Source: an uncultured Bacteroidales bacterium
GTDB taxonomy: Bacteria > Bacteroidota > Bacteroidia > Bacteroidales > FEN-979
DNA: 64,000 bases
NCBI GenBank assembly: GCA_903913885.1
Contig: CAIWMX010000040.1
Coordinates: 2,636 to 66,635 of the forward strand
Direction: 5' to 3'
Shown here: one piece after another, positions 9,560 to 46,627 of the stretch
How positions within the stretch are numbered: the first letter of the stretch is position 1
How the letters are laid out: each line of letters starts with the position of its first letter
The notes under the pieces: model-generated
Database searches by the model: none
The model's input: the letters and a program-made list of their open reading frames with translations, nothing else
What the model was told of the DNA's origin: nothing
Translations under genes and position numbers: made by a program

Positions 9560-9603
9560 TAGAGGCTGTTTAATTTTCGTTTTAAAATCCCGTCAGGGAT
9601 TTA

Positions 9604-9707
9604 ATATGGGTAGAAAAAAGGTTGAACTGCAAGGTATCGTCCCGTACGGGACGAAATTCCGTACAAAATGCTCTTCTTTTCTACCCATATTTTGTTCCTA
9701 CGGAACA
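9604..9707. repeat. hairpin/MITE-like intergenic element, copy 1 (core tcgtcccgtacgggacgaaat)
   Basis: Outer inverted repeat atatgggtagaaaa (9604-9617) / ttttctacccatat (9677-9690). Palindromic core at 9637-9657. Second small hairpin tgttcc-ta-cggaaca at 9693-9707. Confidence 0.7.
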
Positions 9708-9838
9708 AGTTTAGAAAAACCTATGAGGACCTATATTGCTCCAAAAAACAAGGTTCCAAAAATCCCTGAACCAATTTTCTTAATAACTGGTTTAGCATCT
9801 GGAACATCTAGTTCTTCTTTGCCGTTCTTCGTGTTGCA

Positions 9839-10597
9839 CTAAATTTTATGAAAATTCACTGCGCTGGCCTGCGCCGTGGGCATCAGCACCATGTCGTTCA
9901 CGTTCACATGGGCGGGAAGGGTGGTCACATAGTAAACGGCATCGGCAATATCTTCGGCCGAAAGCGGGGAAAACCCCTTGTAGACGTTTCCGGCCCGGGT
10001 TTCATCGCCCTTAAAGCGCACGAGCGAGAATTCGGTTTCGGCTGCCCCCGGGGCGATTTGCGTCACTTTGATGTTATGGGTAACCAGGTCGATCCGTGTT
10101 CCCTTGGTAATCGCGTCGACAGCAAATTTTGAACCGCAGTAAACATTGCCCATCGGGTAAACCTCTTTCCCGGCGACCGAACCGATGTTGATGATATGAC
10201 CCTGTTTGCGGGCCACCATGAGGGGCGAAACCATCCGGGTCATATATAGCAGGCCCTTGACGTTGGTATCGATCATCCGCTCCCAGTCGTCGACCACCCC
10301 TTCATGAACGGGGTTCATCCCCACGGCCAGCCCGGCGTTGTTGACCAGGACGTCGATCTCACGCCAGGGGCCGGTCAGCGATGCAACGGCTTGTTCAACC
10401 TCCGACAGGTTCCTGACGTCAAAACACAGCGGAAGGACTTCCACTCCGTAGGTTTTTCGCAGGTCATCGGCGAGTTCATCGAGCAGTTTTTGCCTGCGGC
10501 CGGTGATGATCAGGTTGTGCCCGTTTTGGGCAAATTTAGTGGCGATTGCCCTGCCAAAGCCGGAGGTGGTGCCGGTGATGAAGATGAGTTTGGTCAT
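9839..10597 (-). CDS. SDR family NAD(P)-dependent oxidoreductase (YdfG-like)
   Basis: ITGTTSGFGRAIA cofactor motif, NNAG, catalytic YCGSK; 252 aa. Confidence 0.88.
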   Translation of the reverse strand: MTKLIFITGTTSGFGRAIATKFAQNGHNLIITGRRQKLLDELADDLRKTYGVEVLPLCFDVRNLSEVEQAVASLTGPWREIDVLVNNAGLAVGMNPVHEGVVDDWERMIDTNVKGLLYMTRMVSPLMVARKQGHIINIGSVAGKEVYPMGNVYCGSKFAVDAITKGTRIDLVTHNIKVTQIAPGAAETEFSLVRFKGDETRAGNVYKGFSPLSAEDIADAVYYVTTLPAHVNVNDMVLMPTAQASAVNFHKI

Positions 10598-10612
10598 GGT
10601 TGGGATAAATTA

Positions 10613-10724
10613 AGGTAGCGAAATGGTGAGGTAGCGAGGTAGCGAAATGGTGAAATGGCAAAATGGTAAAATGGTAAAATGGCAAAATGGTAAAATGGCA
10701 AAATGGTAAAATGGTAAAATGGGG
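10613..10724. repeat. 8-bp tandem array (gaggtagc units, then aaaatggt/aaaatggc units)
   Basis: Direct reading: aggtagcgaaatggtgaggtagcgaggtagcgaaatggtgaaatgg followed by about 9 alternating aaaatggc/aaaatggt units. Confidence 0.9.
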
Positions 10725-10738
10725 AAACATTTAGCCGC

Positions 10739-10772
10739 TTTTTAATTTTTAATTTTAAATTTTTAATTTTTC
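10739..10772. repeat. AT-only 7-bp tandem array (ttaattt/taatttt) overlapping the purL stop
   Basis: ttttaatttttaattttaaatttttaattttt. The last purL codons (..EKLKI*) are read from this array. Confidence 0.8.
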
Positions 10773-13700
10773 CCTGATCCATTCCCGGGCGTTTACGAAC
10801 GCAGTTATCCAGGGAGTTACTTCGTCGGAGTGACGTTCACCGGGATAGTGGGGCCATTGCCAGGGCAGGACGGAATCTTCGAGGTGGGGCATGATGGCGA
10901 GGTGGCGGCCGTCGGCGGATGCGATGCAGGCGGCGTCGAACTGGGAGCCATTGGGGTTGCCGGGATAGCCGTGGTAGCTGAATTTTGCCGGAATATGGTA
11001 GTTGTGTTCCTCGTCGGGGAAGTTGAATTTTCCCTCGCCATGGGCGACCCAGATACCCAGTTTTGAGCCTGCCAGCGATTTCAGCATCACCGAGTTGTTT
11101 TCCATCACGTCGAGGCCGACGAAGGTGCATTCATATTTGTGGGAGTCGTTCCACGACATCCAGGGGTGCTTTTGGTGTTCAGGATAGATCAGGCCGAGGG
11201 CGACCATCAGCTGGCAGCCGTTGCACACGCCCAGGCTGAGGGTATCGTCGCGTTTGTAGAAGTTGTCGAGCGCCAGCCTGGCCTTGTCATTGTAAAGGAA
11301 TGCACCGGCCCAGCCTTTGGCCGAACCCAGCACGTCGGAGTTGGAGAAACCGCCAACGAAGGCGATCATGTTGACATCTTCGAGGTTTTCGCGTCCGGCG
11401 ATCAGGTCGGTCATGTGTACGTCCTTCACGTCGAAACCTGCAAGGTATAGCGCCCATGCCATGTCACGGTCGCGGTTCACGCCTTTTTCACGGATGATGG
11501 CAGCTTTCACGCCCGAAGGTTTCCTGCGTTTTGGATTGGTTCCGAACTGTCCGAAAGTTCCTTGAAAATGATCCGGAAATAAAAATTTCAGCGGTTGCTG
11601 CCTGTAGTTATTGTACCGTTCCAGCGCCAGTTTCTCACCCGACTGTTTCCGGTCGAAGAGATAAGATGTTTTGAACCATGTATCGCGCAGGGCATCGATG
11701 TCGAATAGATATTCCTGTTCTGCGTATTTAATTTTGACAGACCGGTTTTTGGTTATTTTTCCGATTGGGAAAACATCAAAATCAATAAAATCCGATTTTT
11801 TATTTTTAACTTTAAAGTTTACCGGGATTTCGCTACCTCGCCACCTCGCTACTTCGCTAACTCTTACTTGTACCACCACTCCCGGCTTCTCGCTGAACAG
11901 CACCCTGACGGGGTCCCCCACCCTGTCAGGGTCCCCCACCCTGTCAGGGTCCCCCACCCTGTCAGGGTCTCCCACCCTGTCAGGGTCCCCCACCCTGACG
12001 GGGTCCAGGTTATCCAGTTCCAGTGCGAGCCCGGTACCCGGAGTCGAGAATGTCATCTCGAGCAGCGTGGTGATCAAGCCCCCGGCAGCCACATCATGGC
12101 CTGCCAGAATGGCGCCCCGGCTGACAAGGTCCTGGAGGAATTCAAAAACGGCGGCAAAATAAGAGGCATCGGCCACATCGGGCACCTGATCTCCCAGCTG
12201 GCTGATGGACTGGGCAAAACTACTTCCGCCCAACTCAAAATCACACGTTGAAAAAGGAATGTATACCAGTACAGAATCCTCGTCCGGCACAAGGCACGGA
12301 CTCACCACCTTCTTCACATCCGACACCTCGCCAACGGCAGAAATGATCACCGTTCCCGGCGAATAAACAATTTTCCCGTCAGGGTATTTCTGGGTCATCG
12401 ACAGCGAATCCTTCCCAGTGGGAATGTTGATCCCCAGGGCGATGGCAAAATCGCTCACTGACTTCACGGCAGTATACAACCGGGCGTCTTCCCCGGGGTT
12501 CCTACAGGGCCACATCCAGTTGGCGCTCAGCGAAACGCCAGACAGACCGTGGGTAAGCGGCGCCCAGACCAGGTTCGACAACGCCCTTGCAATGGATAAG
12601 CGTGAACCGGCCGCGGGATCGATCAACCCCGCTACAGGCGCATGTCCCAGGGAAGTGGCAATGCCCTTTAGCCCCTGGTAGTCGAGCGCCGTAACGCCCA
12701 CGTTGTTCAGCGGGAGCTGGATGGCGCCGCACGTCTGCTGTTTGGCGATCTTCCCGCTTACGGCCCGGTCGACTTTGTTGGTCAGCCAATCCTTGCAGGC
12801 AACGGCTTCGAGCTGGAGAATCTGGTCAAGGTATTCAGAGACAAGGGTTTGATCGTATGCGAGTGACAAGTGACATGTGACATGTGACAAGTCAACCATG
12901 ATGGTTTTAGGCGGTTTTCCGAAGAAGTCGGCCAGTTTAAGGTCGATGGGATGTACCCCTTCCTTGTGATCTTCGAACACCAGCTGGTGATCGCCGGTGG
13001 TTTTTCCGACAAGATACATGGGTGCCCGCTCCCGTTCGGCGATCCCGCGCATCAGCGCGACATCGACATCGGCCAGGATCAGCCCCATGCGCTCCTGCGA
13101 TTCATTGCTCACGATCTCCTTTGCCGACAAAGTCGGATCTCCGATGGGCAGGCTGTCGATGTTTATGGTCCCGCCGGTTGCTTCCACCAGCTCCGACAAG
13201 GCATTGAGATGGCCGCCGGCTCCGTGGTCGTGGATGGAGACAATGGGGTTCTGCTCCATCTCCGTCATAGCCCTGATGGCGTTGAACACCCGCTTCTGCA
13301 TCTCGGGATTGGACCGTTGCACCGCGTTGAGTTCGATGGCATTGGCAAATTCGCCGGTAGCCACCGACGAAACGGCGCCGCCGCCCATCCCGATGCGGTA
13401 GTTGTCGCCCCCCAGCACCACGATCTGCTGTCCGGCTGCAGGTTCTTCCTTCAGGCTGTCGTGTTGTTTGGCGAACCCGATGCCTCCTGCCTGCATGATC
13501 ACCTTGTCGTACCCGTAAACCCGGTCCCCGGCGGCATGTTCGAAGGTAAGCAGCGATCCGCAGATCAGCGCCTGGCCGAACTTGTTGCCGAAATCGCTGG
13601 CGCCGTTGGAGGCCTTGATCAGGATCTCCTCCGGGGTCTTGTAGAGCCAGGGACGCGCTTCGACGCTTTTTTCCCACGAACGGGCGCCTTCGGTACGCGG

Positions 13701-14612
13701 GTATGAGGTCATGTAAACGGCCGTGCCGGCCATGGGAATGCTCCCCTTCCCTCCTGCCATGCGGTCGCGGATCTCGCCGCCGCTGCCGGTGGCTGCCCCG
13801 TTGAAGGGTTCTACGGTGGTCGGGAAATTATGGGTTTCCGCCTTCAGCGAGATGACGGAGTGAATGTCGCTGATCACGAAATAATCGGCCACATCCTGGC
13901 GCACGGGTGCGAACTGCTCGATGTCGGGCCCGAGGATGAAGGCGACGTTGTCCTTGTATGCCGAGACCAGGAAATCGGGATGTTCTTTGGCCGTTTTTTT
14001 GATCATGGCAAAGAGCGAATCATCCATCTCCTTCCCGTCGATGATGAAAGTGCCGTTGAAGATCTTATGCCGGCAATGTTCCGAATTAACCTGCGAAAAG
14101 CCAAACACCTCGCTGTCGGTGAGCCCCCGGCCAAGCTTGTGGCTCAACCCGATGAGGTATTCAATCTCCTCCCCGCTCAGCGCCAGCCCCTGCTGACTGT
14201 TATATCCTGCAATATCCTCAATAAACTGCACCGGCTCCGGATCATGCAGAATATGAAAAATCTCCTGGTCCAGCACCTCATACACATGCTGCAGCATCGG
14301 GTCAAACGGCTGCCTGTCCCCCTCAATTGTAAATCCTAAATCGTCAATCGTAGATCGAAAATCGTAAATCGAAAATTCCTCAATCCTTTTAATCCCGCCG
14401 ATTCCCATATTCTGCGTAATCTCCACCGCATTCGTGCTCCATGGTGTGACCATTTCACGGCGCGGGCCGATAAAGGTTCCCTGTAAAACAGGTTCGGCGA
14501 TGCATACCGCCTCGCCGAACAACCAAACCAGTTTCTGAACATCCTGCCCGCTGAGCCCCTGGCTGCTTTCAACAGCATAGTAACTTTCGGGATTTTTGAA
14601 AAATGTTATCAT
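10755..14612 (-). CDS. purL: phosphoribosylformylglycinamidine synthase, single-chain large type
   Basis: 1285-aa ORF with the N-terminal PurS-like region, two AIR-synthase-like repeats (ETHNFPTTVEPFNGAATGSGGEIRD, DHGAGGHLNALSE) and a C-terminal class-I glutamine amidotransferase (GVCNGCQ, HGEG). Confidence 0.97.
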   Translation of the reverse strand: MITFFKNPESYYAVESSQGLSGQDVQKLVWLFGEAVCIAEPVLQGTFIGPRREMVTPWSTNAVEITQNMGIGGIKRIEEFSIYDFRSTIDDLGFTIEGDRQPFDPMLQHVYEVLDQEIFHILHDPEPVQFIEDIAGYNSQQGLALSGEEIEYLIGLSHKLGRGLTDSEVFGFSQVNSEHCRHKIFNGTFIIDGKEMDDSLFAMIKKTAKEHPDFLVSAYKDNVAFILGPDIEQFAPVRQDVADYFVISDIHSVISLKAETHNFPTTVEPFNGAATGSGGEIRDRMAGGKGSIPMAGTAVYMTSYPRTEGARSWEKSVEARPWLYKTPEEILIKASNGASDFGNKFGQALICGSLLTFEHAAGDRVYGYDKVIMQAGGIGFAKQHDSLKEEPAAGQQIVVLGGDNYRIGMGGGAVSSVATGEFANAIELNAVQRSNPEMQKRVFNAIRAMTEMEQNPIVSIHDHGAGGHLNALSELVEATGGTINIDSLPIGDPTLSAKEIVSNESQERMGLILADVDVALMRGIAERERAPMYLVGKTTGDHQLVFEDHKEGVHPIDLKLADFFGKPPKTIMVDLSHVTCHLSLAYDQTLVSEYLDQILQLEAVACKDWLTNKVDRAVSGKIAKQQTCGAIQLPLNNVGVTALDYQGLKGIATSLGHAPVAGLIDPAAGSRLSIARALSNLVWAPLTHGLSGVSLSANWMWPCRNPGEDARLYTAVKSVSDFAIALGINIPTGKDSLSMTQKYPDGKIVYSPGTVIISAVGEVSDVKKVVSPCLVPDEDSVLVYIPFSTCDFELGGSSFAQSISQLGDQVPDVADASYFAAVFEFLQDLVSRGAILAGHDVAAGGLITTLLEMTFSTPGTGLALELDNLDPVRVGDPDRVGDPDRVGDPDRVGDPDRVGDPVRVLFSEKPGVVVQVRVSEVARWRGSEIPVNFKVKNKKSDFIDFDVFPIGKITKNRSVKIKYAEQEYLFDIDALRDTWFKTSYLFDRKQSGEKLALERYNNYRQQPLKFLFPDHFQGTFGQFGTNPKRRKPSGVKAAIIREKGVNRDRDMAWALYLAGFDVKDVHMTDLIAGRENLEDVNMIAFVGGFSNSDVLGSAKGWAGAFLYNDKARLALDNFYKRDDTLSLGVCNGCQLMVALGLIYPEHQKHPWMSWNDSHKYECTFVGLDVMENNSVMLKSLAGSKLGIWVAHGEGKFNFPDEEHNYHIPAKFSYHGYPGNPNGSQFDAACIASADGRHLAIMPHLEDSVLPWQWPHYPGERHSDEVTPWITAFVNAREWIREKLKI
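11831..11864. repeat. 8-bp tandem array inside the purL coding sequence
   Basis: cgctacctcg ccacctcg ctacttcg ctaactc, translated in purL as ..VSEVARWRGSE... It shares 15 nt (11827-11841) with the reverse complement of 10634-10648. Confidence 0.8.
11902..12006. repeat. 18-bp tandem array (approx 5.8 units) inside the purL coding sequence
   Basis: accctgtcagggtccccc repeated. Read in purL as DPVRVG-(DPDRVG)x4-DPVRV. Confidence 0.95.
12863..12891. repeat. 7-bp tandem array (gtgacaa/gtgacat x4) inside the purL coding sequence
   Basis: gtgacaagtgacatgtgacatgtgacaag, read in purL as ..LSHVTCHLSLA.. Confidence 0.8.
14330..14378. repeat. degenerate 7-bp tandem array (taaatcg-like x7) inside the purL 5' coding region
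   Basis: taaatcc taaatcg tcaatcg tagatcg aaaatcg taaatcg aaaattc, read in purL as ..YDFRSTIDDLGFT.. Confidence 0.7.
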
Positions 14613-14699: not shown

Positions 14700-14766
14700 C
14701 ATTGTCTGCATTGTTTGCATTGTCTGCATTGTCTGCATTGTCTGCATTGCTTGCATTGTTTGCATT
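14700..14766. repeat. 9-bp tandem array (cattgtctg/cattgtttg, 7 units) between the trxB stop and the purL start
   Basis: Direct reading. Two unit variants alternate. The array ends 7 nt from the trxB stop codon. Confidence 0.92.
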
Positions 14767-15858: not shown

Positions 15859-15932
15859 CGGGGTGTGGCGCAGTTGGCTAGCGTACTTGCATGGGGTGCA
15901 AGGGGTCGGAAGTTCGAGTCTTCTCACCCCGA
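15859..15932 (+). tRNA. tRNA-Pro (anticodon GGG), CCA not encoded
   Basis: Hand-folded cloverleaf. Acceptor CGGGGTG/CACCCCG, D stem GCGC/GCGT, anticodon stem CTTGC/GCAAG with loop AT-GGG-GT (U33, G37). 5-nt variable loop, T arm GGAAG-TTCGAGT-CTTCT, discriminator A. 74 nt in total. Confidence 0.9.
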
Positions 15933-17566: not shown

Positions 17567-20203
17567 ATGCAGACACAATTTCAATATATCACTGATCTTG
17601 CCAGGCAATACAAGGAATATTCAGACCATCAGGATATTTTGTACCAGGCCGTTAATAACTTGCCGCAAAACATCATTGAAGATGTATTTAAGGAATACGG
17701 TGATCCGGAACGGGATTTTAAACCGGTTAACCTTGTGCGGGCGGAAGTTGCCCGCAGACTATTGCAAGGTGAGCCTGTTACTGAAGCACTTGTAAATGAA
17801 ATCAAAGAAAAAATAAGGATAAAGGACACTGCTTTTTTTAGCCATTACAATGAAAATTATCTTAAACAACTTACAGAATATGAGTTGTTTAAAAGGGATT
17901 TGTTTGCCAACTGGCAAAAACCATGGAGTATATTTCATACGTTTTTCTACAGGCTTGCATGGGGAAAGGAAAAAGAAACTGTTCAAACCTACCTGGAACA
18001 AATTGCCAGGGACCTATTGGTTCAACTTGATTTAAAGGATTACACGTTTCACAAAGTTGATTTCCAGGGGGCATCTAACTTCGGTAGTAGTCATTGCTGG
18101 ATCGCGTTATATCCCGTGACAAAAGAATCACATAAAGATAGTTATCAGTTTTTCCTAATGTTAAGTGCTGACCCGGAAGCAGGCATGGTTGCTGGTTTTT
18201 CGATCCGGGAGCCAAAGCCGAATAAATTAAAGAAAGTAAATTCTTATAATGAGTCACTGGAATATTTGAAAGAGCTAAAACATGAAATTGTCCAGCTGAA
18301 TAAGGAAAGCAGGAGCTATTTCAAGTTTGCCCCAGGCAGTCAGGCAAGCGAATGGAGGAAATTTCATGAGGAAGGTATTGCGGCAATAAGTTATAACAAT
18401 GTAAATCTGCAGGATCTAACACCCTTCAAATCACGAGAAGAAATAAATATTGCAGCCGGGTTGGAACCAGACAATTGGTCCAACAATACCTGGAACCTTT
18501 GGCTTTTTAAAAATGCCAATATTGGCGATGTGATTTTTGCCACAAAGGGGGTCAATACTTCCATTGGCATTGGAATCATCGAAGGCGGATACTATTATGA
18601 CGCATCAGAGAATGATTATCAGCACCGGCGGAAGATAAACTGGATAACCGATAAAGTATACCAGTATAAATCTGACACGTTAAAGACTTACAAAACACTG
18701 TTCCGGCCAGATACATTCAGTCCAACCAAGGTATGGGAATTTTTGCTTGGAGAATATGTCCGGTTATTCCCTGAGCTGGCTGACTTGTTTGAGAAACACA
18801 ACCTGAAATTCAAAACAACCTCGGCTGTGACCTCTACTGTTAATGAACCTGAAGAGGCATCAGATCCGGAAGCGGAAGAAAAAGAACCATTAAATTTCTG
18901 GTGGCTGAATGCCAATCCGAAAATCTGGCGAATCAGCGATAATAGCGAAGGGCAATGCCAATCCTATACAACACACAATGAAAAGGGGAATAAGCGCAGA
19001 ATCTATAAACACTTTGAAGAAGCCAGGCCGGGAGACCTGATCATCGGGTATGAAAGCACACCAACCAAGCAGATCAAAGCAATTTACGAAGTTACCAAAG
19101 GGATACATTTAGCAGAAGAAGGAGAAGAGATAGAATTTCAGTTAGTTGAAAAGCTTGAAATTCCAGTTCATTGGAACGACTTGAAAAACAATCCGGCCCT
19201 TCAGGACTGCGAGGTCTTTATTAACAATCAGGGGAGTCTTTTTAAACTCACCGAGCCGGAGTTTGATATCATTCGTGAGATTATTGATAACAAGAATATC
19301 ATCACCGAAATACTGTTGCAAAAAAGCAATATCAGGCAATACCGGTTTGCTGAAGATGCGGACAAACCCTTTATCAGCGAAACTGACTTTCTCCAAACCG
19401 TTGCACTCCTCAAACGGAAAAAGAACATTATCCTTCAGGGCCCGCCGGGGGTGGGGAAGACCTTCATTGCCCGTAAAATTGCCTATGAGATAATGCAGGA
19501 GGTGAACGACGTAAACATTGAGATGGTACAGTTTCACCAATCATACAGCTACGAAGATTTTATCCAGGGATTGCGTCCCACTCAAAAAGGGGGTTTTGAG
19601 CTGAAAGACGGCATCTTTTATTCATTTTGTCAGAAAGCCCTGGCACACCCTGATCGGCCATTCTTTTTTATCATTGATGAAATAAACAGGGGTAATCTAA
19701 GTAAGATTTTTGGGGAGTTGATGATGTTGATGGAGGCTGATAAGCGGCAGGAAAAATTTGCCCTGAAACTGACCTATGCAGAGGATGAAGAGGATCGTTT
19801 TTATGTGCCGGAAAACCTTTACATCATCGGCACCATGAACACGGCCGACCGTTCCCTGGCCATTGTGGACTATGCCCTTCGGCGTCGGTTCTCCTTCGTA
19901 ACCCTTCAACCAGACTATGGGGAAAATTTTCGTTCGTTCCTTACATCCAGGGGGCTTTCTGAAGCTATGACAGAACATATTTGTGCCTCCATCAGGAACG
20001 TTAACAACAAAATAAAGGATGATCCGAATCTTGGCGATGGGTTTCAGATTGGACACAGCTATTTTTGCACCTTCAAAACCGGAGAAGATGAACGAATATG
20101 GTGGAACGAAATTCTTGGGTTTGAGCTGAAACCCCTGCTGGAGGAAATTTGGTTTGATGACGCGAAAAGCGTTGATGAGACCTTCAACTTACTCTCCAGG
20201 TAG
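17567..20203 (+). CDS. mcrB: McrB-family AAA+ GTPase restriction subunit with extended multi-domain N-terminus
   Basis: The C-terminal 270 aa carry Walker A LQGPPGVGKTF, FFFIIDEINRGNLSKIFGELMMLME and IIGTMNTADRSLAIVDYALRRRFSF. From memory these are near-identical to E. coli McrB signature blocks. An ATG at 17567 is preferred over the TTG at 17519. Confidence 0.92.
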   Translation: MQTQFQYITDLARQYKEYSDHQDILYQAVNNLPQNIIEDVFKEYGDPERDFKPVNLVRAEVARRLLQGEPVTEALVNEIKEKIRIKDTAFFSHYNENYLKQLTEYELFKRDLFANWQKPWSIFHTFFYRLAWGKEKETVQTYLEQIARDLLVQLDLKDYTFHKVDFQGASNFGSSHCWIALYPVTKESHKDSYQFFLMLSADPEAGMVAGFSIREPKPNKLKKVNSYNESLEYLKELKHEIVQLNKESRSYFKFAPGSQASEWRKFHEEGIAAISYNNVNLQDLTPFKSREEINIAAGLEPDNWSNNTWNLWLFKNANIGDVIFATKGVNTSIGIGIIEGGYYYDASENDYQHRRKINWITDKVYQYKSDTLKTYKTLFRPDTFSPTKVWEFLLGEYVRLFPELADLFEKHNLKFKTTSAVTSTVNEPEEASDPEAEEKEPLNFWWLNANPKIWRISDNSEGQCQSYTTHNEKGNKRRIYKHFEEARPGDLIIGYESTPTKQIKAIYEVTKGIHLAEEGEEIEFQLVEKLEIPVHWNDLKNNPALQDCEVFINNQGSLFKLTEPEFDIIREIIDNKNIITEILLQKSNIRQYRFAEDADKPFISETDFLQTVALLKRKKNIILQGPPGVGKTFIARKIAYEIMQEVNDVNIEMVQFHQSYSYEDFIQGLRPTQKGGFELKDGIFYSFCQKALAHPDRPFFFIIDEINRGNLSKIFGELMMLMEADKRQEKFALKLTYAEDEEDRFYVPENLYIIGTMNTADRSLAIVDYALRRRFSFVTLQPDYGENFRSFLTSRGLSEAMTEHICASIRNVNNKIKDDPNLGDGFQIGHSYFCTFKTGEDERIWWNEILGFELKPLLEEIWFDDAKSVDETFNLLSR

Positions 20204-20206
20204 ACC

Positions 20207-21238
20207 ATGCAGATCCCTATCGAAAATATCTATTACCTGCTTTGCTACGCATGGAACAAGCTCGATGAGAAGGAGCGCGTAAACGTTTCCATAGATGACA
20301 AGACCGAACTCCTTGACCTGTTTGCCAAAATCCTGATCAATGCCACACGGTCCTTGCTGAAACGAGGGATTGACAAGAACTACATCGATCATACCGAAGA
20401 ACTGGCCGGGGTAAAGGGGAAACTCCAACTCAGCCAGACCCTGAAACGCAATTTACTCTTCAAGCAACGAACCATCTGCACCTTCGACCATTTTTCATCA
20501 AACATCCTTTCCAATAGGATCCTGGTGACAACCATCTACAGGCTGACGCGTACCAAAGATCTTGATAAAAAGTTAAAGACCGACCTCGTCGCCTTGCAGA
20601 GAATGCTGTCACACATTCAGCAGATTGAATTGACCGTAAACCTTTTCAAACAAATCCGGCTCAACAGGAATAATCGGTTTTATGGCTACATCATGAATGT
20701 ATGTCAGATTATCCTCGAAAACACACTTCCTACAGAGAAACCTGGTGTTTACAAATTCTCAGATTTTACCCGCGATGACCGCAAGATGAACCAGCTCTTT
20801 GAAGCGTTTATACGAAATTTTTACCGCATTGAACAGAAGAGGTTTCCTGCCGTGAAAAAAGAGACCATCCTATGGAAATTCGAAATCGAAGATACGGTAA
20901 GTCTTCATTATCTGCCACGAATGGAAACCGATATAACTCTGGAAAATGACAAGGAAAAGATCATCATCGATGCCAAGTTCTACAGGGAAACCATGGTTTT
21001 AAATTATAATAAAGAGAAGATAAAATCGGCCAACTTATACCAGCTGTTCAGTTACTTGTTAAATCAGGAGGATGGTACATCAAAAACACAGCAGGCGACC
21101 GGTATTTTACTTTATCCAACGATTGAAAATGAATACAACTTTCAGTTTCGATTTCAGCAACATCTAATTCAAATACGGACCATTAACCTAAATTCAAATT
21201 GGAGAAATATTTCAAAAACATTGTTGCAGATAATTTAA
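20207..21238 (+). CDS. mcrC: McrC-family restriction endonuclease subunit
   Basis: Starts 3 nt after the mcrB stop. N-terminus IENIYYLLCYAWNKL, and a C-terminal PD-(D/E)xK-like TDITLE...IIIDAKFY. Confidence 0.88.
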   Translation: MQIPIENIYYLLCYAWNKLDEKERVNVSIDDKTELLDLFAKILINATRSLLKRGIDKNYIDHTEELAGVKGKLQLSQTLKRNLLFKQRTICTFDHFSSNILSNRILVTTIYRLTRTKDLDKKLKTDLVALQRMLSHIQQIELTVNLFKQIRLNRNNRFYGYIMNVCQIILENTLPTEKPGVYKFSDFTRDDRKMNQLFEAFIRNFYRIEQKRFPAVKKETILWKFEIEDTVSLHYLPRMETDITLENDKEKIIIDAKFYRETMVLNYNKEKIKSANLYQLFSYLLNQEDGTSKTQQATGILLYPTIENEYNFQFRFQQHLIQIRTINLNSNWRNISKTLLQII

Positions 21239-23669: not shown

Positions 23670-24386
23670 ATGTCAAAACACGAGGAGAAAGAGATCACCG
23701 GCGACGAGATCAAAAAGGAGTTCCAGGTTGAACGGATGATCCTGTTCAGCGACGCGGTATTCGCCATCGTCATCACCCTGATGGCCATCGAGATCAGGCT
23801 GCCCGAAACGGGCGGCAAGGAGGGCGCGCTGCCGCTGGCGCAGGCCCTGGAGCACCTGCTGCCCGTCATCGTTTCCTACTGCATCAGCTTTGTGTTTATC
23901 GGGGCCATCTGGTACCAGCACCTGCGGATGTTCAGCCTGCTGAAGGATTACGACCGCGGGTTGATCGTGCGCAACCTGGTGCTGCTCTTCTTCGTAAGCC
24001 TCTTCCCCTTCAGCTCCTCCGTGATCACGCACGAACAGGGAGGCATGACCGCCATGTTCTTCTACCTGGGTATCATCCTGCTTTCCGTCGCCGCACAATA
24101 TTTTTTGTACCGCTACATCCTGGTGGAGCGTCCCGGGCTCCGCATCAGCACCGGGATCGCGAAACATATGCAGGAACTGCGGAAACAAAAGATATCCCTG
24201 GTCAGCTTCGCCTCCACCTACGTGCTGATCACCCTCACCTCGCTGCTGATCACCAAACCGGAACTGAAACCGATGTCCGTCATGTGGATGGCCGTGTTCC
24301 CCTTCGTATACCGCTGGATGGCCGCGAAAAAGGCAAAACATGCCAAAGCCGGTGGGCCGGAAAATGGCGGGAAGCAAGCTGAATAA
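23670..24386 (+). CDS. TMEM175/DUF1211 family potassium channel
   Basis: Signature ERMILFSDAVFAIVITLMAIEIRLP near the N-terminus, about 6 hydrophobic helices, 238 aa. Confidence 0.82.
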   Translation: MSKHEEKEITGDEIKKEFQVERMILFSDAVFAIVITLMAIEIRLPETGGKEGALPLAQALEHLLPVIVSYCISFVFIGAIWYQHLRMFSLLKDYDRGLIVRNLVLLFFVSLFPFSSSVITHEQGGMTAMFFYLGIILLSVAAQYFLYRYILVERPGLRISTGIAKHMQELRKQKISLVSFASTYVLITLTSLLITKPELKPMSVMWMAVFPFVYRWMAAKKAKHAKAGGPENGGKQAE

Positions 24387-24404: not shown

Positions 24405-24725
24405 CGGCCCCCTCGCCAGAATACCTCACCCCCCTGACCCCCTCTCCGCCCGGAGAGGGGGAGGAAAGTTGTTGAATCATTTATCAGTTTGAAGCAAAAT
24501 ACCTGCAAACCTCACCAATCCGAGAATCCACGGCACCAACATTTGATTCCATGAAAATAAACAATTCTCCCCCTCTCCGGGCGGAGAGGGGGTCAGGGGG
24601 GTGAGGTATGCCAGAGCGAGACGCCACTCGGAGAGGGGATCAGGGGGGGGAGGTATGCCAGAGCGAGACGCCGCCCGGAGAGGGGGTCAGGGGGGTAATT
24701 TATGCCAGAGCGGAGTCAGGACGTG
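24405..24725. repeat. GC-rich hairpin repeat cluster (ccctctcc-loop-ggagaggg + tcaggggggtgagg), inverted plus tandem copies
   Basis: An inverted copy at about 24412-24465 and three forward copies with about 47-bp period at about 24568-24725 (ggtatgccagagcgagacgcc...cggagagggggtcagggggg). They flank a roughly 100-bp unique spacer. Confidence 0.85.
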
Positions 24726-30440: not shown

Positions 30441-31499
30441 GCGCTCAAGCAAAGCTTCCGACAGTTTCCATAACTGCCTGCAGTTCGCCTGATCGGCCGC
30501 CTTTTCATCCACCTCTTTCCTGCTCATCAGGAAAAGGTAGTCGAAGGATTTTCCCTCCTCATCGGGGGAGGCAGCCAGGTAGCTCACCGGGACAGCCGCT
30601 TTGGCCGGCGACCTGAAGAAGATACCGAACACCAGCCTGAGCAGCGGTGTGAAAACCTTCGGGGCTTCACGTGCAATGTTTGAATTGACAGGCCCGGGAC
30701 AAAGGGCGAACACAGATGCACTGACCATTGCACCCGTATTTATCCGGCGCGACAGTTCCACGGCAAAGGTGGTGAGCAGCAGTTTGTAATATCCGTAAAG
30801 TTCTATGGACTTCCCGATCTGGTAATCGCGGTATTTCCCAAAATCGTTCCATTCAAATTTTTCAGGATTGCGGTGGCTTTCGGATGCCACGAAAATGATC
30901 CGCGGAATAACAGGATTCAACCCGTCAGCAACAGCTGCGGTCTGGTTCTGCTGAACCTGCGGCTGGCAAGTGATTTCGCGGTTTGCAAAACAATGGTTTT
31001 CAATAAGCAACTTCAAAAAAATGAATTTCGAGAAGTAATTCACCATAAACATCTCTTCCAGCCCCTGCGGTGTCTTCCGGCTTTGTTTGGGAACGATCCC
31101 GGCATTGCACACCAGGATGTCGATTCCGCCTCCTCCCCCGCTTCCCGTGCCGGTAGTTTTACGGATATTCTCTACCAACTGCCTGATCGAGCGGGTATCG
31201 GCGAAGTCAACCTGCAGCATATGAACATCCTGGTTCCCTGAAAGCTTTTTCACCAGCTCGCCCTTTTCGGGGATGCCGCTGCGGCAGGCCATGATCAGAC
31301 TGGCTCCTCTTTTTGCCATATCAACCGCCACGGCAAACCCCAGGCCTGAACTTGCCCCGTCGACCAGCACGGTCTTGCCGTCGAGACGGTCTGACGGTTT
31401 CAGTTCTCCCGCCGGTTCATGTTTGCGGAAGAGGTCGCTTATCCCTGTGAGGGTTGCCGACACGGGGTTGTTGTATTTTTTCTGCTTTTTATCTGCCAT
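30426..31499 (-). CDS. SDR family oxidoreductase (long form, 357 aa)
   Basis: [13 protein letters not shown] cofactor motif and LVCNAG. There is an unusual Gly-run insertion [10 protein letters not shown] before the NAG block. It overlaps the upstream sulfotransferase gene by 11 nt. Confidence 0.75.
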
Positions 31500-32808
31500 A
31501 ATGGTTGTTGAATATTTCCTGGTAACGGGTGGTGTGTTGGTCGATATCGGCTTCGGTCAGTCCAAAATCTGCCAGCGCGTAATGGTGCATCCCGTTTTTA
31601 CGGTGCGGGTGTTCCAGTTCATGCTGCCTGAATTTTTCAGCCAGTTCCGGCGTCATGCCCCCGTTCTGCTTATAGATCAGGGATAACGCATCTACGGAAT
31701 CGCTGAGAAGGTCCTTGTAAAAGATATCGGTAAACCTGGACTCATTCCCGTCCTTCAACCGGTATTCCAGCGCCTGTTCAAGCATGTAGCCCGTTTTGCG
31801 CACCCAGTGTGCGGCAACCTGCCGCTCGTCGACCTCGTTGCTGAAGATCCTCCGGTTGCAGGTAACCATGCTCAGGAACGATGGCACCGATTCATACAGG
31901 CTCCGGTGGGGCCACACGAAATGCACCTCCCCAAAGTTTTTTTCTATCAAACCCGGGAATTCGAGATGGTGCGGGGTTTTCAGGATCCACCGTTTGGCCG
32001 GTTTTATCCACTGAAGGAATTTCAGCAGCTTCGCGGCGTAGGCATAGGCGGGCGACTGGTCGGTGTTTTCGAGCCACGACGAATAGGAAGGCACATGCAT
32101 CATGGCTTCCGGCGTGGTGCTCAGGAAGCTGACGTCGAGCATGAGGATGTCCTCTTCCGGCTGCATGGCGTCGATGGGATGGATCGCAAAAAACCCGGGC
32201 GACATGAGTTTCAGGGCCTTCACGGAGATGCTGGCGACGGAGGGGCGTTTGTCGCGGGGGTGGGGGTATGGTTGTTGTAAATGGTGATCGGGTGACAGGG
32301 TGATAGGGTGACAGGGTGACAGGTCATACAGGTCCAGGTTCATCGGCATGGGGTTGATCACCTCCCAACTGGGGATGACGCGGTGGTCGGGGTCGACGGC
32401 AAGCAGGCGCTGGAGCTTGGTGGTGCCGGTTCGCTGCAGCCCGACGATGATCCAGGCGGGGCAAAGCTCCTGCTCAAGGATCTCCGGGTGCTTTTTGAAG
32501 AAATACTCGGCCCGGAGCCGGATACCGAGCAGACTGACAAACCGTTCGCCTGTGATGAACCGCCCGATCGGATGTAGATTCGCCTCCTCATTCACGGCTT
32601 GTAACAGTCTGTCGAGCGGCTCATCCATGAAATCCTTCCCCAGGTCAGTCAGCCCGGTGCTCTTCCTGGCTGCGCGAATCAGTCCGTCTTTGTCCAGGCT
32701 GATGCGTGTGCCTGCGGCATAGGTTCCCTGCCAGATGCGGTTGATCGCGCTGAACCATGCCGGGCTTTGGCTGAATTGCTTAATGGTGGTGGGGTTAGAG
32801 GAGGTCAT
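31489..32808 (-). CDS. sulfotransferase family protein
   Basis: 5'-PSB-like loop IVGLQRTGTTKLQRLL; 439 aa. Contains an in-frame microsatellite-derived insert. Confidence 0.75.
   Translation of the reverse strand: MTSSNPTTIKQFSQSPAWFSAINRIWQGTYAAGTRISLDKDGLIRAARKSTGLTDLGKDFMDEPLDRLLQAVNEEANLHPIGRFITGERFVSLLGIRLRAEYFFKKHPEILEQELCPAWIIVGLQRTGTTKLQRLLAVDPDHRVIPSWEVINPMPMNLDLYDLSPCHPITLSPDHHLQQPYPHPRDKRPSVASISVKALKLMSPGFFAIHPIDAMQPEEDILMLDVSFLSTTPEAMMHVPSYSSWLENTDQSPAYAYAAKLLKFLQWIKPAKRWILKTPHHLEFPGLIEKNFGEVHFVWPHRSLYESVPSFLSMVTCNRRIFSNEVDERQVAAHWVRKTGYMLEQALEYRLKDGNESRFTDIFYKDLLSDSVDALSLIYKQNGGMTPELAEKFRQHELEHPHRKNGMHHYALADFGLTEADIDQHTTRYQEIFNNHYGR
32283..32322. repeat. 8-bp tandem array (ggtgacag-like x5) inside the sulfotransferase coding sequence
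   Basis: ggtgatcg ggtgacag ggtgatag ggtgacag ggtgacag, read in the gene as ..DLSPCHPITLSPDHH.. Confidence 0.85.
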
Positions 32809-32836
32809 CGGGGGTTATGGGGTTTGGTGGGCGGGT

Positions 32837-32908
32837 GGACAGGCGGACAGGCGGACAGGTGGACAGGCGGACAGGCGGACAGGTGGACAGGCGGACAGGT
32901 GGACATGG
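32837..32908. repeat. 8-bp tandem array (ggacaggc/ggacaggt, 9 units), intergenic
   Basis: Direct reading. The last-base unit pattern is C C T C C T C T, then a degenerate unit. Confidence 0.92.
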
Positions 32909-32930
32909 GCACAGATGAACAGAAATTAGT

Positions 32931-32961
32931 AATTTTTAATTTTTAATTTTTAATTTTTAAT
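32931..32961. repeat. AT-only 7-bp tandem array (aattttt x4) abutting a stop codon
   Basis: aatttttaatttttaatttttaatttttaa ends at the stop of the 32961-34139 gene. Confidence 0.85.
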
Positions 32962-34139
32962 TATTTCTCCTCCCTTTTCACTTCGCAACAAGGCTCGACT
33001 ACTGCCCTGTCCCCTGCTTTGATCCTGTACCACCTCCACAACATGGTGCCTTCGTTGTGGCCGCAGGTGTTGATCCAATTAGGTGTTCCCGGGTCGGTGT
33101 GGGCGACGACGACCTTTACGGAGCCGTCGGGTTCATATATGGCAGTGGCTTTATTGATGCAGATGGTGAAATAACGGTAATCGAGCGATTCCATCCAGTA
33201 GTTGTTGAGCTGGAAGTTCCATGAATCGCAGTCAGGCGGTTTAACCGTGATCACGAGCGATTCATTGTCCGCCAGTTTCCAGTAACTGTGGTAATAAATA
33301 ATGCTGGCATCGCCCCCTGCCGCATTTGACACCTCAGGGTCAAACAGGGGGAGTTTGTTGGTATGTTTCTGAAATCCGTTGGCCCACCTGGCAAAGAGTA
33401 AAGAAGCCCCTGCCACGAACATCGACGCGGTTTTCAGTCCTTCGTCGATCATGGCAGGCGTTATAGGTTCGGGTGCTGTGCGGCCATCGAGGTTTTCAAT
33501 AGTGATTTCCGACGGTGTCTCAGTAAAACGGTCCAGGAAGGTCTGTCGAACCATCACCATCGAGGTTGCTGGTTCAGTTTTCAGCCAGTTTTTGCCGGTG
33601 GGCGTGGGGCCCAGGATAATCTCAAAGCTGCCGTCATCGTCAATGACCAGGTCGGTGTGTTCAAGCACGCCACAGGGCGACATTCCCCCGGTGGTGCCAT
33701 AATTGCCGTTTTGAGTAAAAAACCCTATGTAGTGCACCGAATTCCGTTTCCCGCGGATGCGATAGCTGTATTTCCCGCTGATCTGGGCATTGAAGTAATA
33801 GTTGTCAGGGTTATCTGCCCCCATTTTCACTGTTTCATGAGCCAGCCGGCGCAATACCGGGAATGCCGGGTCGCAGTACTCCACGAATGCCTCCAGTCCG
33901 CCGCGCGTGAGCCGGGTGAGGTAACGCAGCCCTTCGGCCTGGTTGAAAGCGTCCCGCGGTGTGCCCGGGTACATGAGCGAGGCGCCGGCCGATTTCAGGT
34001 TATCGCAAAATTCATCCCATGATTTACCGATTACCACGCGCTGCGCATGGATGTCGTCTTCCGTTTTCCCCCGGAGTTTTAAACCGAATTGACGGAAGGC
34101 CTTCAGCATGCCCAAAAAGAGAAACAAGAGCTTTCTCAT
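32961..34139 (-). CDS. hypothetical protein, DUF1214-like (assignment tentative)
   Basis: 392-aa ORF. Blocks such as GADNPDNYYF, GKNWLKT and PNWINTCGHNEGTMLWRW resemble DUF1214-type proteins as I remember them. No catalytic motif recognised. Confidence 0.5.
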   Translation of the reverse strand: MRKLLFLFLGMLKAFRQFGLKLRGKTEDDIHAQRVVIGKSWDEFCDNLKSAGASLMYPGTPRDAFNQAEGLRYLTRLTRGGLEAFVEYCDPAFPVLRRLAHETVKMGADNPDNYYFNAQISGKYSYRIRGKRNSVHYIGFFTQNGNYGTTGGMSPCGVLEHTDLVIDDDGSFEIILGPTPTGKNWLKTEPATSMVMVRQTFLDRFTETPSEITIENLDGRTAPEPITPAMIDEGLKTASMFVAGASLLFARWANGFQKHTNKLPLFDPEVSNAAGGDASIIYYHSYWKLADNESLVITVKPPDCDSWNFQLNNYWMESLDYRYFTICINKATAIYEPDGSVKVVVAHTDPGTPNWINTCGHNEGTMLWRWYRIKAGDRAVVEPCCEVKREEK

Positions 34140-46462: not shown

Positions 46463-46479
46463 TTTTGCGCAGGGATTAC

Positions 46480-46563
46480 GAAGGACGAAGGACGAAGGAT
46501 GTGGGACGTGGGACGAAGGATGAAGGACGAAGGACGTGGGACGAAGGACGTGGGACGTGGGGA
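46480..46563. repeat. 7-bp tandem array (gaaggac/gtgggac, 12 units) between the large fusion gene and icd
   Basis: Direct reading. Two unit types are interleaved (A A A' B B A' A A B A B B'). Confidence 0.92.
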
Positions 46564-46627
46564 AAGTTGAATTTAGGGTTTGGAATTTTGAGTTTTTGAT
46601 ATTTTTTTTTAATTAAACAATAATTTT

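Follow-up and report, generated by a model that had tools for sequence, protein, structure and literature searches.

Introduction

Tandem arrays of short repeat units were found inside purL, the gene of the large phosphoribosylformylglycinamidine synthase (FGAM synthetase, PurL), in a 64,000-nucleotide stretch of DNA (contig CAIWMX010000040.1, positions 2,636 to 66,635; hereafter the window) of an uncultured lake bacterium, a member of a freshwater Bacteroidales lineage in which similar arrays fill the intergenic spacers. Among the closest described systems are the long simple-sequence repeats (LSSR) with 5-11-nt units, for which Mrazek and co-workers (2007), as relayed in PMC4679880 and PMC4692102, describe many arrays per genome, prominent heptamers, a sporadic phylogenetic distribution and slippage as the proposed origin. 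The LSSR surveys, as relayed there, report that coding regions favour units that are multiples of three, with heptamers found mainly in the spacers, and repeats were reported to be suppressed in protein middles (PMC3315296). Spacers of some Bacteroidetes are also reported to contain heptamer arrays. The purL arrays resemble LSSR in these general features and in being tandem 7-9-nt units with heptamers prominent among them, whereas they differ in that the 7- and 8-mers are translated within a conserved enzyme, occupy recurrent sites and reach up to 21 copies in a relative. We consider it probable that the purL arrays are LSSR housed in a functional PurL, produced by slippage and local template switching and filtered by reading frame, by the absence of stop codons and by tolerant loops; they are most likely a passive yet unusual outcome of repeat dynamics under purifying selection.

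The TAACTGA direct repeats of Beggiatoaceae, cyanobacteria and five Bacteroidetes are located mostly beside gene starts and stops, are translatable in a single orientation, break assemblies within the arrays and were proposed to have a regulatory role upstream of start codons (MacGregor 2015, PMC4679880). They share with the purL arrays the dispersal of one heptamer over many loci, whereas they are nearly all intergenic with a marginal intragenic presence, and an upstream regulatory role is inapplicable inside purL; TAACTGA was the consensus unit of none of the arrays reported in the window by Tandem Repeats Finder (TRF). The GGGAATC-type heptamers of Xanthomonas and Nostoc are genome-wide, with variable copy number and occasional inverted pairs (Rehm 2015, PMC4692102). 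Heptamers, variable copy number and inverted pairs were also found in the case of purL, whereas the GGGAATC-type units form G-quadruplexes, prefer four units and occur less often than expected within coding sequence, and the purL units are not G-tract repeats. In Campylobacter jejuni, purF and apt are hypervariable and contain viable in-frame duplications and deletions (PMC4611032). These genes and the contingency loci of Haemophilus, Neisseria and Campylobacter are similar to purL in their repeat-mediated insertions and deletions (indels) inside genes, but in purL no on/off alleles were seen, the 7-18-nt units are decayed and there is no evidence of adaptive heterogeneity.

The STRR heptamers of heterocyst-forming cyanobacteria, said to have been described by Vioque in 1997, are dispersed arrays of a lineage-specific vocabulary that reportedly can also occupy a tolerant peripheral position within an indispensable gene, that of the RNase P RNA. 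They belong to another phylum, the purL units (TACGATT, TGTCACW, GGTAGCGA and AAAATTA) are not known to be among the STRR units, and the purL arrays were not assigned to them; the host gene there is an RNA, so no reading-frame or stop filter acts on it. Housekeeping proteins of Plasmodium and Dictyostelium tolerate repeat-derived, poorly conserved low-complexity loops between conserved enzyme blocks, but these are eukaryotic cases, driven by an extreme base composition and for the most part by codon runs of the trinucleotide or homopolymer type.

In bacterial repeat surveys, units that are not a multiple of three are kept from gene middles and, where present, act as on/off switches. In purL, by contrast, 7- and 8-bp arrays lie in the middle of an enzyme, all three frames are translated, the sites persist in the clade and length changes are only frame-preserving; no account of translated 7/8-mer arrays at recurrent sites in a conserved enzyme was found in the open-access literature. 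The locus offers a natural experiment on how much junk a multidomain enzyme tolerates at loops and domain junctions, on the stop and frame filtering of microsatellite spread, and on whether or not arrays propagate locally by template switching. In practical terms, such arrays break short-read assemblies and split the gene calls of metagenome-assembled genomes (MAGs).

The purL gene and its product

An intact open reading frame (ORF) of 1285 amino acids (aa) was found at 10755-14612 on the minus strand and was identified as purL. The protein matched the NCBIfam model NF003672 with 1395 bits (cut-off 783) over residues 9-1279, which places it in the large-PurL family, whereas TIGR01735 scored 1077, slightly below its cut-off of 1123, as expected given the 57 extra residues described below. 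The human and Salmonella PurL structures in the PDB matched the window PurL at E 1e-199 to 1e-190, and its AlphaFold2 (AF2) model was found to resemble 1t3t/9n9w with a template modelling (TM) score of 0.74-0.75. The motifs GVCNGCQL and MPHLED (C1133, H1243, E1245) were invariant in alignment A1, as in the glutaminase region of a PurL; the catalytic roles assigned to this region are those of StPurL. From the NF003672 score, the invariant catalytic-region columns and the PurL fold, the gene is predicted to encode a functional large PurL. When the window PurL was scanned against NCBIfam, PurL-family models alone were returned, with no intein or transposase models, and the precomputed Pfam domains of close homologs were all PurL domains. 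The gene has a GC content of 55.6% and makes up 6.5% of the coding DNA of the window.

Tandem arrays inside purL

The arrays were called with TRF on the window, and the following repeat-linked segments were found in purL.

Site 1, 14325-14376 by TRF (feature 14325-14378), minus strand: (TACGATT)n, period 7, 7.4 decayed copies, 77% matches, 30% GC
Site 1 product, aa 79-96, near the N-terminus: peptide IYDFRSTIDDLGFTI, net insert of +13 aa at aa 84-96
Site 2, 12862-12892, minus strand: (TGTCACW)n, period 7, 4.4 copies, 91% matches, peptide SHVTCHLSL
Site 3, 11901-12006, minus strand: period 18, 5.9 copies, 93% matches, peptide DPVRVG(DPDRVG)4DPVRV
Site 4a, 11830-11863, minus strand: (GGTAGCGA)-type 8-mer, 4.2 copies, 80% matches, peptide SEVARWRGSE
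Site 4b, 11784-11825, minus strand: AT-rich segment (21% GC) beside the 8-mer, net insert of +14 aa (aa 930-943), peptide PVNFKVKNKKSDFI
Stop-codon array, 10739-10771, minus strand: TTTTTAA x4.7, (AAAAATT)n on the coding strand, straddling the purL stop

An earlier note made from the sequence alone had described four arrays inside the ORF of purL, a gene which it took to be essential, translated as odd low-complexity peptides. All four were found again by TRF and the quoted peptides are present in the translation, but the four are not the full set, as the 14-aa AT-rich insert and the stop-straddling 7-mer have to be added. Net inserts were defined by alignment to eight insert-free Bacteroidota PurLs of 1224-1234 aa. 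The earlier description of the four as in-frame inserts holds for site 1 and for the 18-mer of site 3, which adds +27 aa (aa 872-898), whereas neither the second 7-mer nor the 8-mer lengthens the protein: site 2 (aa 574-584) substitutes variable native linker residues and site 4a (aa 918-928) stands where the insert-free orthologs contain ordinary variable residues. The protein ends in LKI, and these three residues, like the TAA stop, come from the stop-codon array. Four of the six repeat-linked segments are therefore net insertions and two are length-neutral, and the net insertions sum to 57 aa (13 + 27 + 14 + 3), which accounts for the 1285 aa of the window PurL against about 1228 aa.

Site 4b is probably a decayed AAAATTA-type array whose periodicity is below the TRF threshold; at the homologous place the related locus L003 contains AATTAAA x2.7. 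The 18-mer of site 3 is an expansion of the native DPVRV motif. Its internal units (CCCTGACAGGG) were found to contain a perfect 6-bp palindrome that is absent from the flanking native units (CCCCGTCAGGG), and as single-stranded DNA the array folds at -36.8 kcal/mol (z = -4.8).

The codon-shuffled purL (n=500) contained a mean of 0.02 arrays with a TRF score of at least 47, whereas the real gene contains three (48, 62-68 and 177), in addition to the 8-mer array with a score of 41-47. The arrays thus consist, like LSSR, of head-to-tail units of 5-11 nt that are longer than expected by chance, with the 18-mer exceeding that unit range. Direct reading of the flanks revealed no terminal repeats or target duplications around the purL arrays of the kind that accompany a mobile element. 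The purL 35-mer between the 18-mer and 8-mer arrays had 0 matches in the metagenome scan.

Reading frame and stop codons

The 7- and 8-mer arrays are read through, passing all three frames, and yield 7- or 8-aa periodic peptides. Such an array can be translated only if no rotation of its unit contains a stop, since each frame is used in turn. The units TACGATT and TGTCACT were found to be circularly stop-free on the coding strand, whereas TAA or TGA is present on the opposite strand. The 8-mer GGTAGCGA contains TAG, and the sole unit that would place this TAG in frame reads TGG instead (AGG TGG CGA). The net extra length of the purL arrays was found to be a multiple of three. Of the arrays in 80 examined metagenome loci that contain (TACGATT)x3.5 exactly, those within a long stop-free stretch were read as IYDLRFT.

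At least 120 metagenome contigs contain the exact 25-mer (TACGATT)x3.5 (metagenome loci L095-L174); their GC content is 34-68%, and they derive from soils, peat, lakes and further sample sets. These arrays were located mostly at gene starts or stops, and a minority was intragenic and read as IYDLRFT; an example is the matching site in three homologous TPR-containing membrane proteins (L124, L128 and L161). The genes beside these metagenome arrays, judged by eye, looked like ordinary housekeeping genes and not like transposases.

Position of the arrays in the protein

AF2 models were made of residues 1-640 (mean predicted local distance difference test score, pLDDT, 52) and of residues 86-1285 (mean pLDDT 66, predicted TM score 0.68). 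The former was poor outside the N-terminal domain, which itself was modelled at a pLDDT of about 90. In this model site 1 is the loop that connects strands 74-82 and 108-114, and its pLDDT drops below 50 over residues 87-99. Within the N-terminal domain it is thus placed after the first compact beta-alpha unit, which may be PurS-like in our own reading of the fold. In the model of residues 86-1285, site 2 is coil, with a strand on one side and a long helix on the other. The block of the 18-mer was found to have a pLDDT of 44, against 69 (86-88 further out) and 83-93 in the flanking blocks, and in the alignment with human PurL the 18-mer lies in a short loop preceding the conserved LFSE(K/E)PG strand. 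The block of the AT-rich insert of site 4b had a pLDDT of 51-54, and the site 4a peptide SEVARWR was modelled as a helix in a block with a pLDDT of 82. Site 1, site 2 and the 18-mer are thus predicted, from alignment and models, to sit in loops between conserved blocks, in line with the earlier placement of the inserts in linker or surface regions, whereas the 8-mer peptide is modelled as a helix.

Arrays in the relatives

The closest PurL proteins were found to be 66-78% identical, with a length of 1227-1331 aa, and belong to Bacteroidales/Bacteroidota MAGs (freshwater Bacteroidales). In the species-representative genome collection the nearest loci were those of the lake-water MAGs L037, L001 and L003, the best of them 76% identical. 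In alignment A1 many relatives contained low-complexity peptides with a period of seven residues at exactly matching places, which derive from different units: YDLRFTN from (TACGAWT)n, VTRHASR from (GTCACGC)n, SLVTCHS from (TCACTTG)n, IQYSIFN from (ATTCAAT)n and MQDAGCK from (ATGCAGG)n. A YDLRFTN-like peptide was present at site 1 in 13 of 25 relatives. The peptide of site 2 was of the SRVTRHASLVY type in many relatives and that of site 4a was SEVAKW or GEMAKWR. Endings at the C-terminus were KLKIKN, QLKIKN or EKLKNS.

At the DNA level, arrays were found at homologous purL sites in L037, L003, L002, L093 and L094, with starts within a few nucleotides of each other. The L037 array contains the site-1 unit and starts at the matching nucleotide, and related units were present at site 1 in L003 and L093, whereas site 2 was occupied in the relatives by TCGTCAC x5.9, ACGCGTC x4.3 or GATGCAR x8.7. 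Three of the loci contained the following purL arrays.

L037: ATTTACG x4.3, TCGTCAC x5.9, GCGAAATG x4.8, AATTAAA x3.7
L003: AATTACG x4.1 with CGTCACG x9.1, ACGCGTC x4.3, AATTAAA x2.7
L094: GATGCAG-type x19.1, x8.7, x21.6

No arrays were found in the purL of the more distant Bacteroidota L004, L007, L011 and L021. The same peptides in unrelated taxa with no DNA periodicity, which the earlier note had named as evidence against its view, were thus not encountered; the relatives have DNA arrays and the distant Bacteroidota have none. The insert length at sites 1, 3 and 4 ranged from 0 to about 50 aa across relatives, with unrelated units, and the site-1 repeat insert carried by most close relatives was absent from the close relatives P0013, P0004 and P0002. 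A long match in L053 that looked like a big insertion was rejected as a tblastn over-extension beyond the normal stop.

Copy-number variation and alleles

Within clusters of at least 90% identity, the full-length PurLs were found to vary in length at the array sites and in the C-terminal tails, and a few members also differed at the N-terminus, which is a matter of the called start. The indels in these clusters were of 7, 12, 19, 24 and 35 aa at site 1, of 12 aa at the DPVRV site and of 7 aa at the IQYSIF site, and those of 12 aa derive either from a super-unit of 36 nt or from 2 x 18 nt. Frame-preserving super-units of 21 and 36 nt were found in L093/L094, and one of 21 nt in the window.

Conspecific contigs were located via the TrxB and SDR proteins encoded next to purL, for which exact matches exist; the exact window PurL protein had no database record. 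Over 12.9 kb, the contigs L081 and L082 contained no mismatch to the window, and the sole difference was one extra 18-bp unit (6.9 against 5.9 copies) resulting in a PurL of 1291 aa. The 18-mer was present in 6.9 copies in L089, a strain with three single-nucleotide polymorphisms (SNPs), and L090 from another sample contained the window allele. The expectation of the earlier note that the 18-bp array could vary in frame was borne out by these otherwise identical contigs. The 7- and 8-mer arrays were invariant in every conspecific contig covering them, which are few. Copy-number polymorphism among close relatives, which is characteristic of LSSR, was thus found for the 18-mer among conspecifics and for the 7-mer sites in the clusters above 90% identity.

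No frameshifted allele was found among the conspecific contigs or cluster members, a small sample in which assemblies rather than reads were compared, and every full-length allele was in frame, whereas in-frame and out-of-frame alleles coexist at contingency loci. The long pure tract of a contingency locus was likewise absent, as the arrays consist of 4-7 copies with 77-91% matches. The proteins P0156, P0205 and P0208, whose calls start just after site 1, had suggested frameshift alleles; the one contig checked, that of P0156, was found to contain a run of N in the array and no frameshift. In this relative's contig (L215, about 2830-2930) a scaffold N-gap lies inside the site-1 array of purL, and the gene caller therefore placed the start at the Met that follows the array. 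Artefacts induced by such arrays may often account for truncated PurL entries in databases.

The ends of several conspecific contigs lie within arrays (11937/11938, about 11855 and 10616). The window sequence including the arrays was identical in independent metagenome assemblies from other samples and pipelines, and the arrays are therefore not an artefact of a single assembly. Position 14428, about 50 nt before the site-1 array and in the conserved PWSTNAVEITQNMGI coding stretch, is the exact end point of no fewer than two independent assemblies (L083 and L084), and a third contig stops at about the same place, after about 61 purL codons; strain variation or graph tangling are possible causes. 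Positions 1-4088 of L088, compared with window 9563-11938, represent a strain variant with an identical SDR protein and 14 SNPs just downstream; past window position 9563 its gene is another one (ETF alpha), and this junction is a recombination or rearrangement breakpoint adjoining the purL locus.

Spacer arrays and proposed local copying

The spacers on both sides of purL were found to contain arrays.

Downstream spacer, 10613-10722, plus strand: 8-mer arrays AGGTAGCG x4.1 and AAATGGTA x9.8 (TRF)
Upstream spacer (trxB-purL), 14700-14766, minus strand: 9-mer array CAGACAATG x7.4 (TRF)

In L093 the trxB-purL gap was 44 nt long and contained a 14-mer x2.8, and the gap downstream of purL was 3 nt. 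The exact 15-mer at 11827-11841, which is the reverse complement of 10634-10648 as the earlier note had seen, was found to be part of an inverted 36-nt match between the site-4a array and 10613-10648 (plus strand), with 30/36 identities, no gaps and a score of 47, whereas shuffles gave a mean of 14.2 and a maximum of 26. The L037 site-4 array aligned to the downstream spacer of the window with a score of 52. The AAAATTA unit of the purL stop recurs in a spacer at 32930-32964 (TAATTTT x4.7). The assignment of the inserts to the repeat population of the spacers, proposed before, therefore stands, with the 8-mer and the downstream spacer as inverted paralogs. The locus L094 contained a GATGCAG-type heptamer at three purL sites and no 7-mer array in any other gene of its 15 kb, and L003 contained GTCACGC at sites 1 and 2. 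These shared and inverted units argue for copying between nearby places, since de novo slippage would give unrelated units. The 18-mer is the exception to this pattern, being an expansion of native coding sequence.

The spacer 46478-46595 contains ACGAAGG x10 and GGACGTG x9 arrays, and the purL flank of L002 (7959-8013) contains GGACGAG/GGACGAA x5.9, which is near-identical to a unit of that spacer; the unit vocabulary is thus common to different genomes at different loci.

Origin of the arrays

In the proposed mechanism, arrays would nucleate and change in length by slipped-strand mispairing, to which the hairpin-prone 18-mer units would be subject, and template switching or ectopic conversion would copy them to nearby places, which would explain the inverted paralog 1.1 kb away and the one heptamer at three purL sites in L094. 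Purifying selection on PurL would purge the variants that shift the frame, create a stop or strike a structured region, and the survivors would be low-complexity loops carried as passengers, both at a domain junction and in surface loops. Several points weigh against this explanation. Slippage and template switching are steps that we infer from sequence patterns only, the AF2 models are of moderate quality, and copy numbers come from short-read assemblies with ends and an N-gap in arrays, so allele calls could be partly assembly-dependent. Two of the arrays are length-neutral replacements, and the 8-mer peptide is partly conserved and helical, which hints at protein-level constraint. The arrays are also concentrated in purL, which contains four of the five intragenic 7/8-mer arrays in the window (binomial probability about 8e-5, our own estimate). 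Arrays with a period of 7-9 and at least four copies were found in purL (three and the stop-straddling one), in a sulfotransferase-family gene and in four spacers, and the window genes of 3232 and 1531 aa contained no 7/8-mer arrays. A neutral passenger model leaves this enrichment unexplained; tolerant loops and cis-spread may lie behind it.

The same enrichment, together with the clade-wide recurrence of the sites, the SEVAKW-type (site 4a) and SRVTRHASLVY-type (site 2) peptides common to many relatives, the constant length of site 2 and the modelled helix of the 8-mer peptide, could be read as a selected protein feature in which loop and linker lengths tune domain spacing, assembly or solubility of PurL and the DNA periodicity is a mere trace of origin. 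We regard this as unlikely, given the wild sequence and length variation at sites 1, 3 and 4, the close relatives without the site-1 insert, the absence of any insert in most Bacteroidota orthologs and the low model confidence of the inserts. An active seeding of 7-8-nt arrays by a lineage-specific recombinase, a reverse-transcriptase-like copier or a small mobile unit with a preference for purL would fit the presence of one unit at several sites of one gene (L094, L003), the nearby inverted copy, the occurrence of TACGAWT and CGTCACG in purL of some genomes but near other genes in L093, and the spread of (TACGATT)x3.5 over at least 120 metagenome contigs of widely different GC; it is improbable to about the same degree, as no candidate gene was associated with the arrays, the (TACGATT)n neighbours judged by eye looked like ordinary housekeeping genes, terminal repeats and target duplications were absent around the arrays and the 18-mer is plainly expanded native coding sequence. 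Comparably doubtful is a lineage-specific cis copy-and-paste process that would place 7-8-nt arrays in both orientations, with purL as the preferred landing zone across the clade and its loops evolvable or switchable; if true, it may also underlie the pan-bacterial spread of units such as (TACGATT)n.

A contingency locus, in which the 7- and 8-bp arrays would be a reversible frameshift switch of purine synthesis in subpopulations, appears very unlikely. It would draw on the direct reading of the sequence that a one-unit change in a 7- or 8-mer shifts the frame, on the location of site 1 near the N-terminus, a region in which enrichment of phase-variable repeats is usual (Lin and Kussell, PMC3315296), on the high-frequency purine-gene variation in C. 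jejuni (PMC4611032) and on the contigs that end at arrays. Conspecific contigs and cluster members, however, contained no out-of-frame allele and the one candidate proved to be an N-gap, while the short and decayed arrays (77-91% matches) would lower slippage, orthologous arrays stay in frame across species that are 73-78% identical, and the C. jejuni variants are in-frame themselves. That the arrays are not an on/off switch is what we infer from these findings. An assembly or binning artefact is the least credible explanation of all: short-read assemblies do break at arrays, but independent assemblies from different samples and pipelines agree in the sequence, the conserved ORF that contains the arrays in frame is intact, and orthologous arrays are present in other species.

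Other features of the window

Promoter and terminator scans around purL remained at background level, and the Rfam search of the whole window returned a single match, a tRNA gene at 15859-15932. A second array island (32283-32962) was found to contain GGGTGACA x4.2 at 32283-32323, at about aa 162-175 of the sulfotransferase-family gene (coding sequence 31489-32808, minus strand), and GGACAGGC x8.6 and TAATTTT x4.7 in the adjacent spacer. The spacer 24582-24712 contained a G-rich 47-mer x2.8 and the preceding gene a 21-mer x1.9 (24215-24254), a repeat class distinct from the 7-9-mers. According to the gene table of L081, the region 17567-21238 of the window contains a McrBC-type restriction system with an 878-aa McrB-like AAA protein carrying an EVE domain and a 343-aa McrC.

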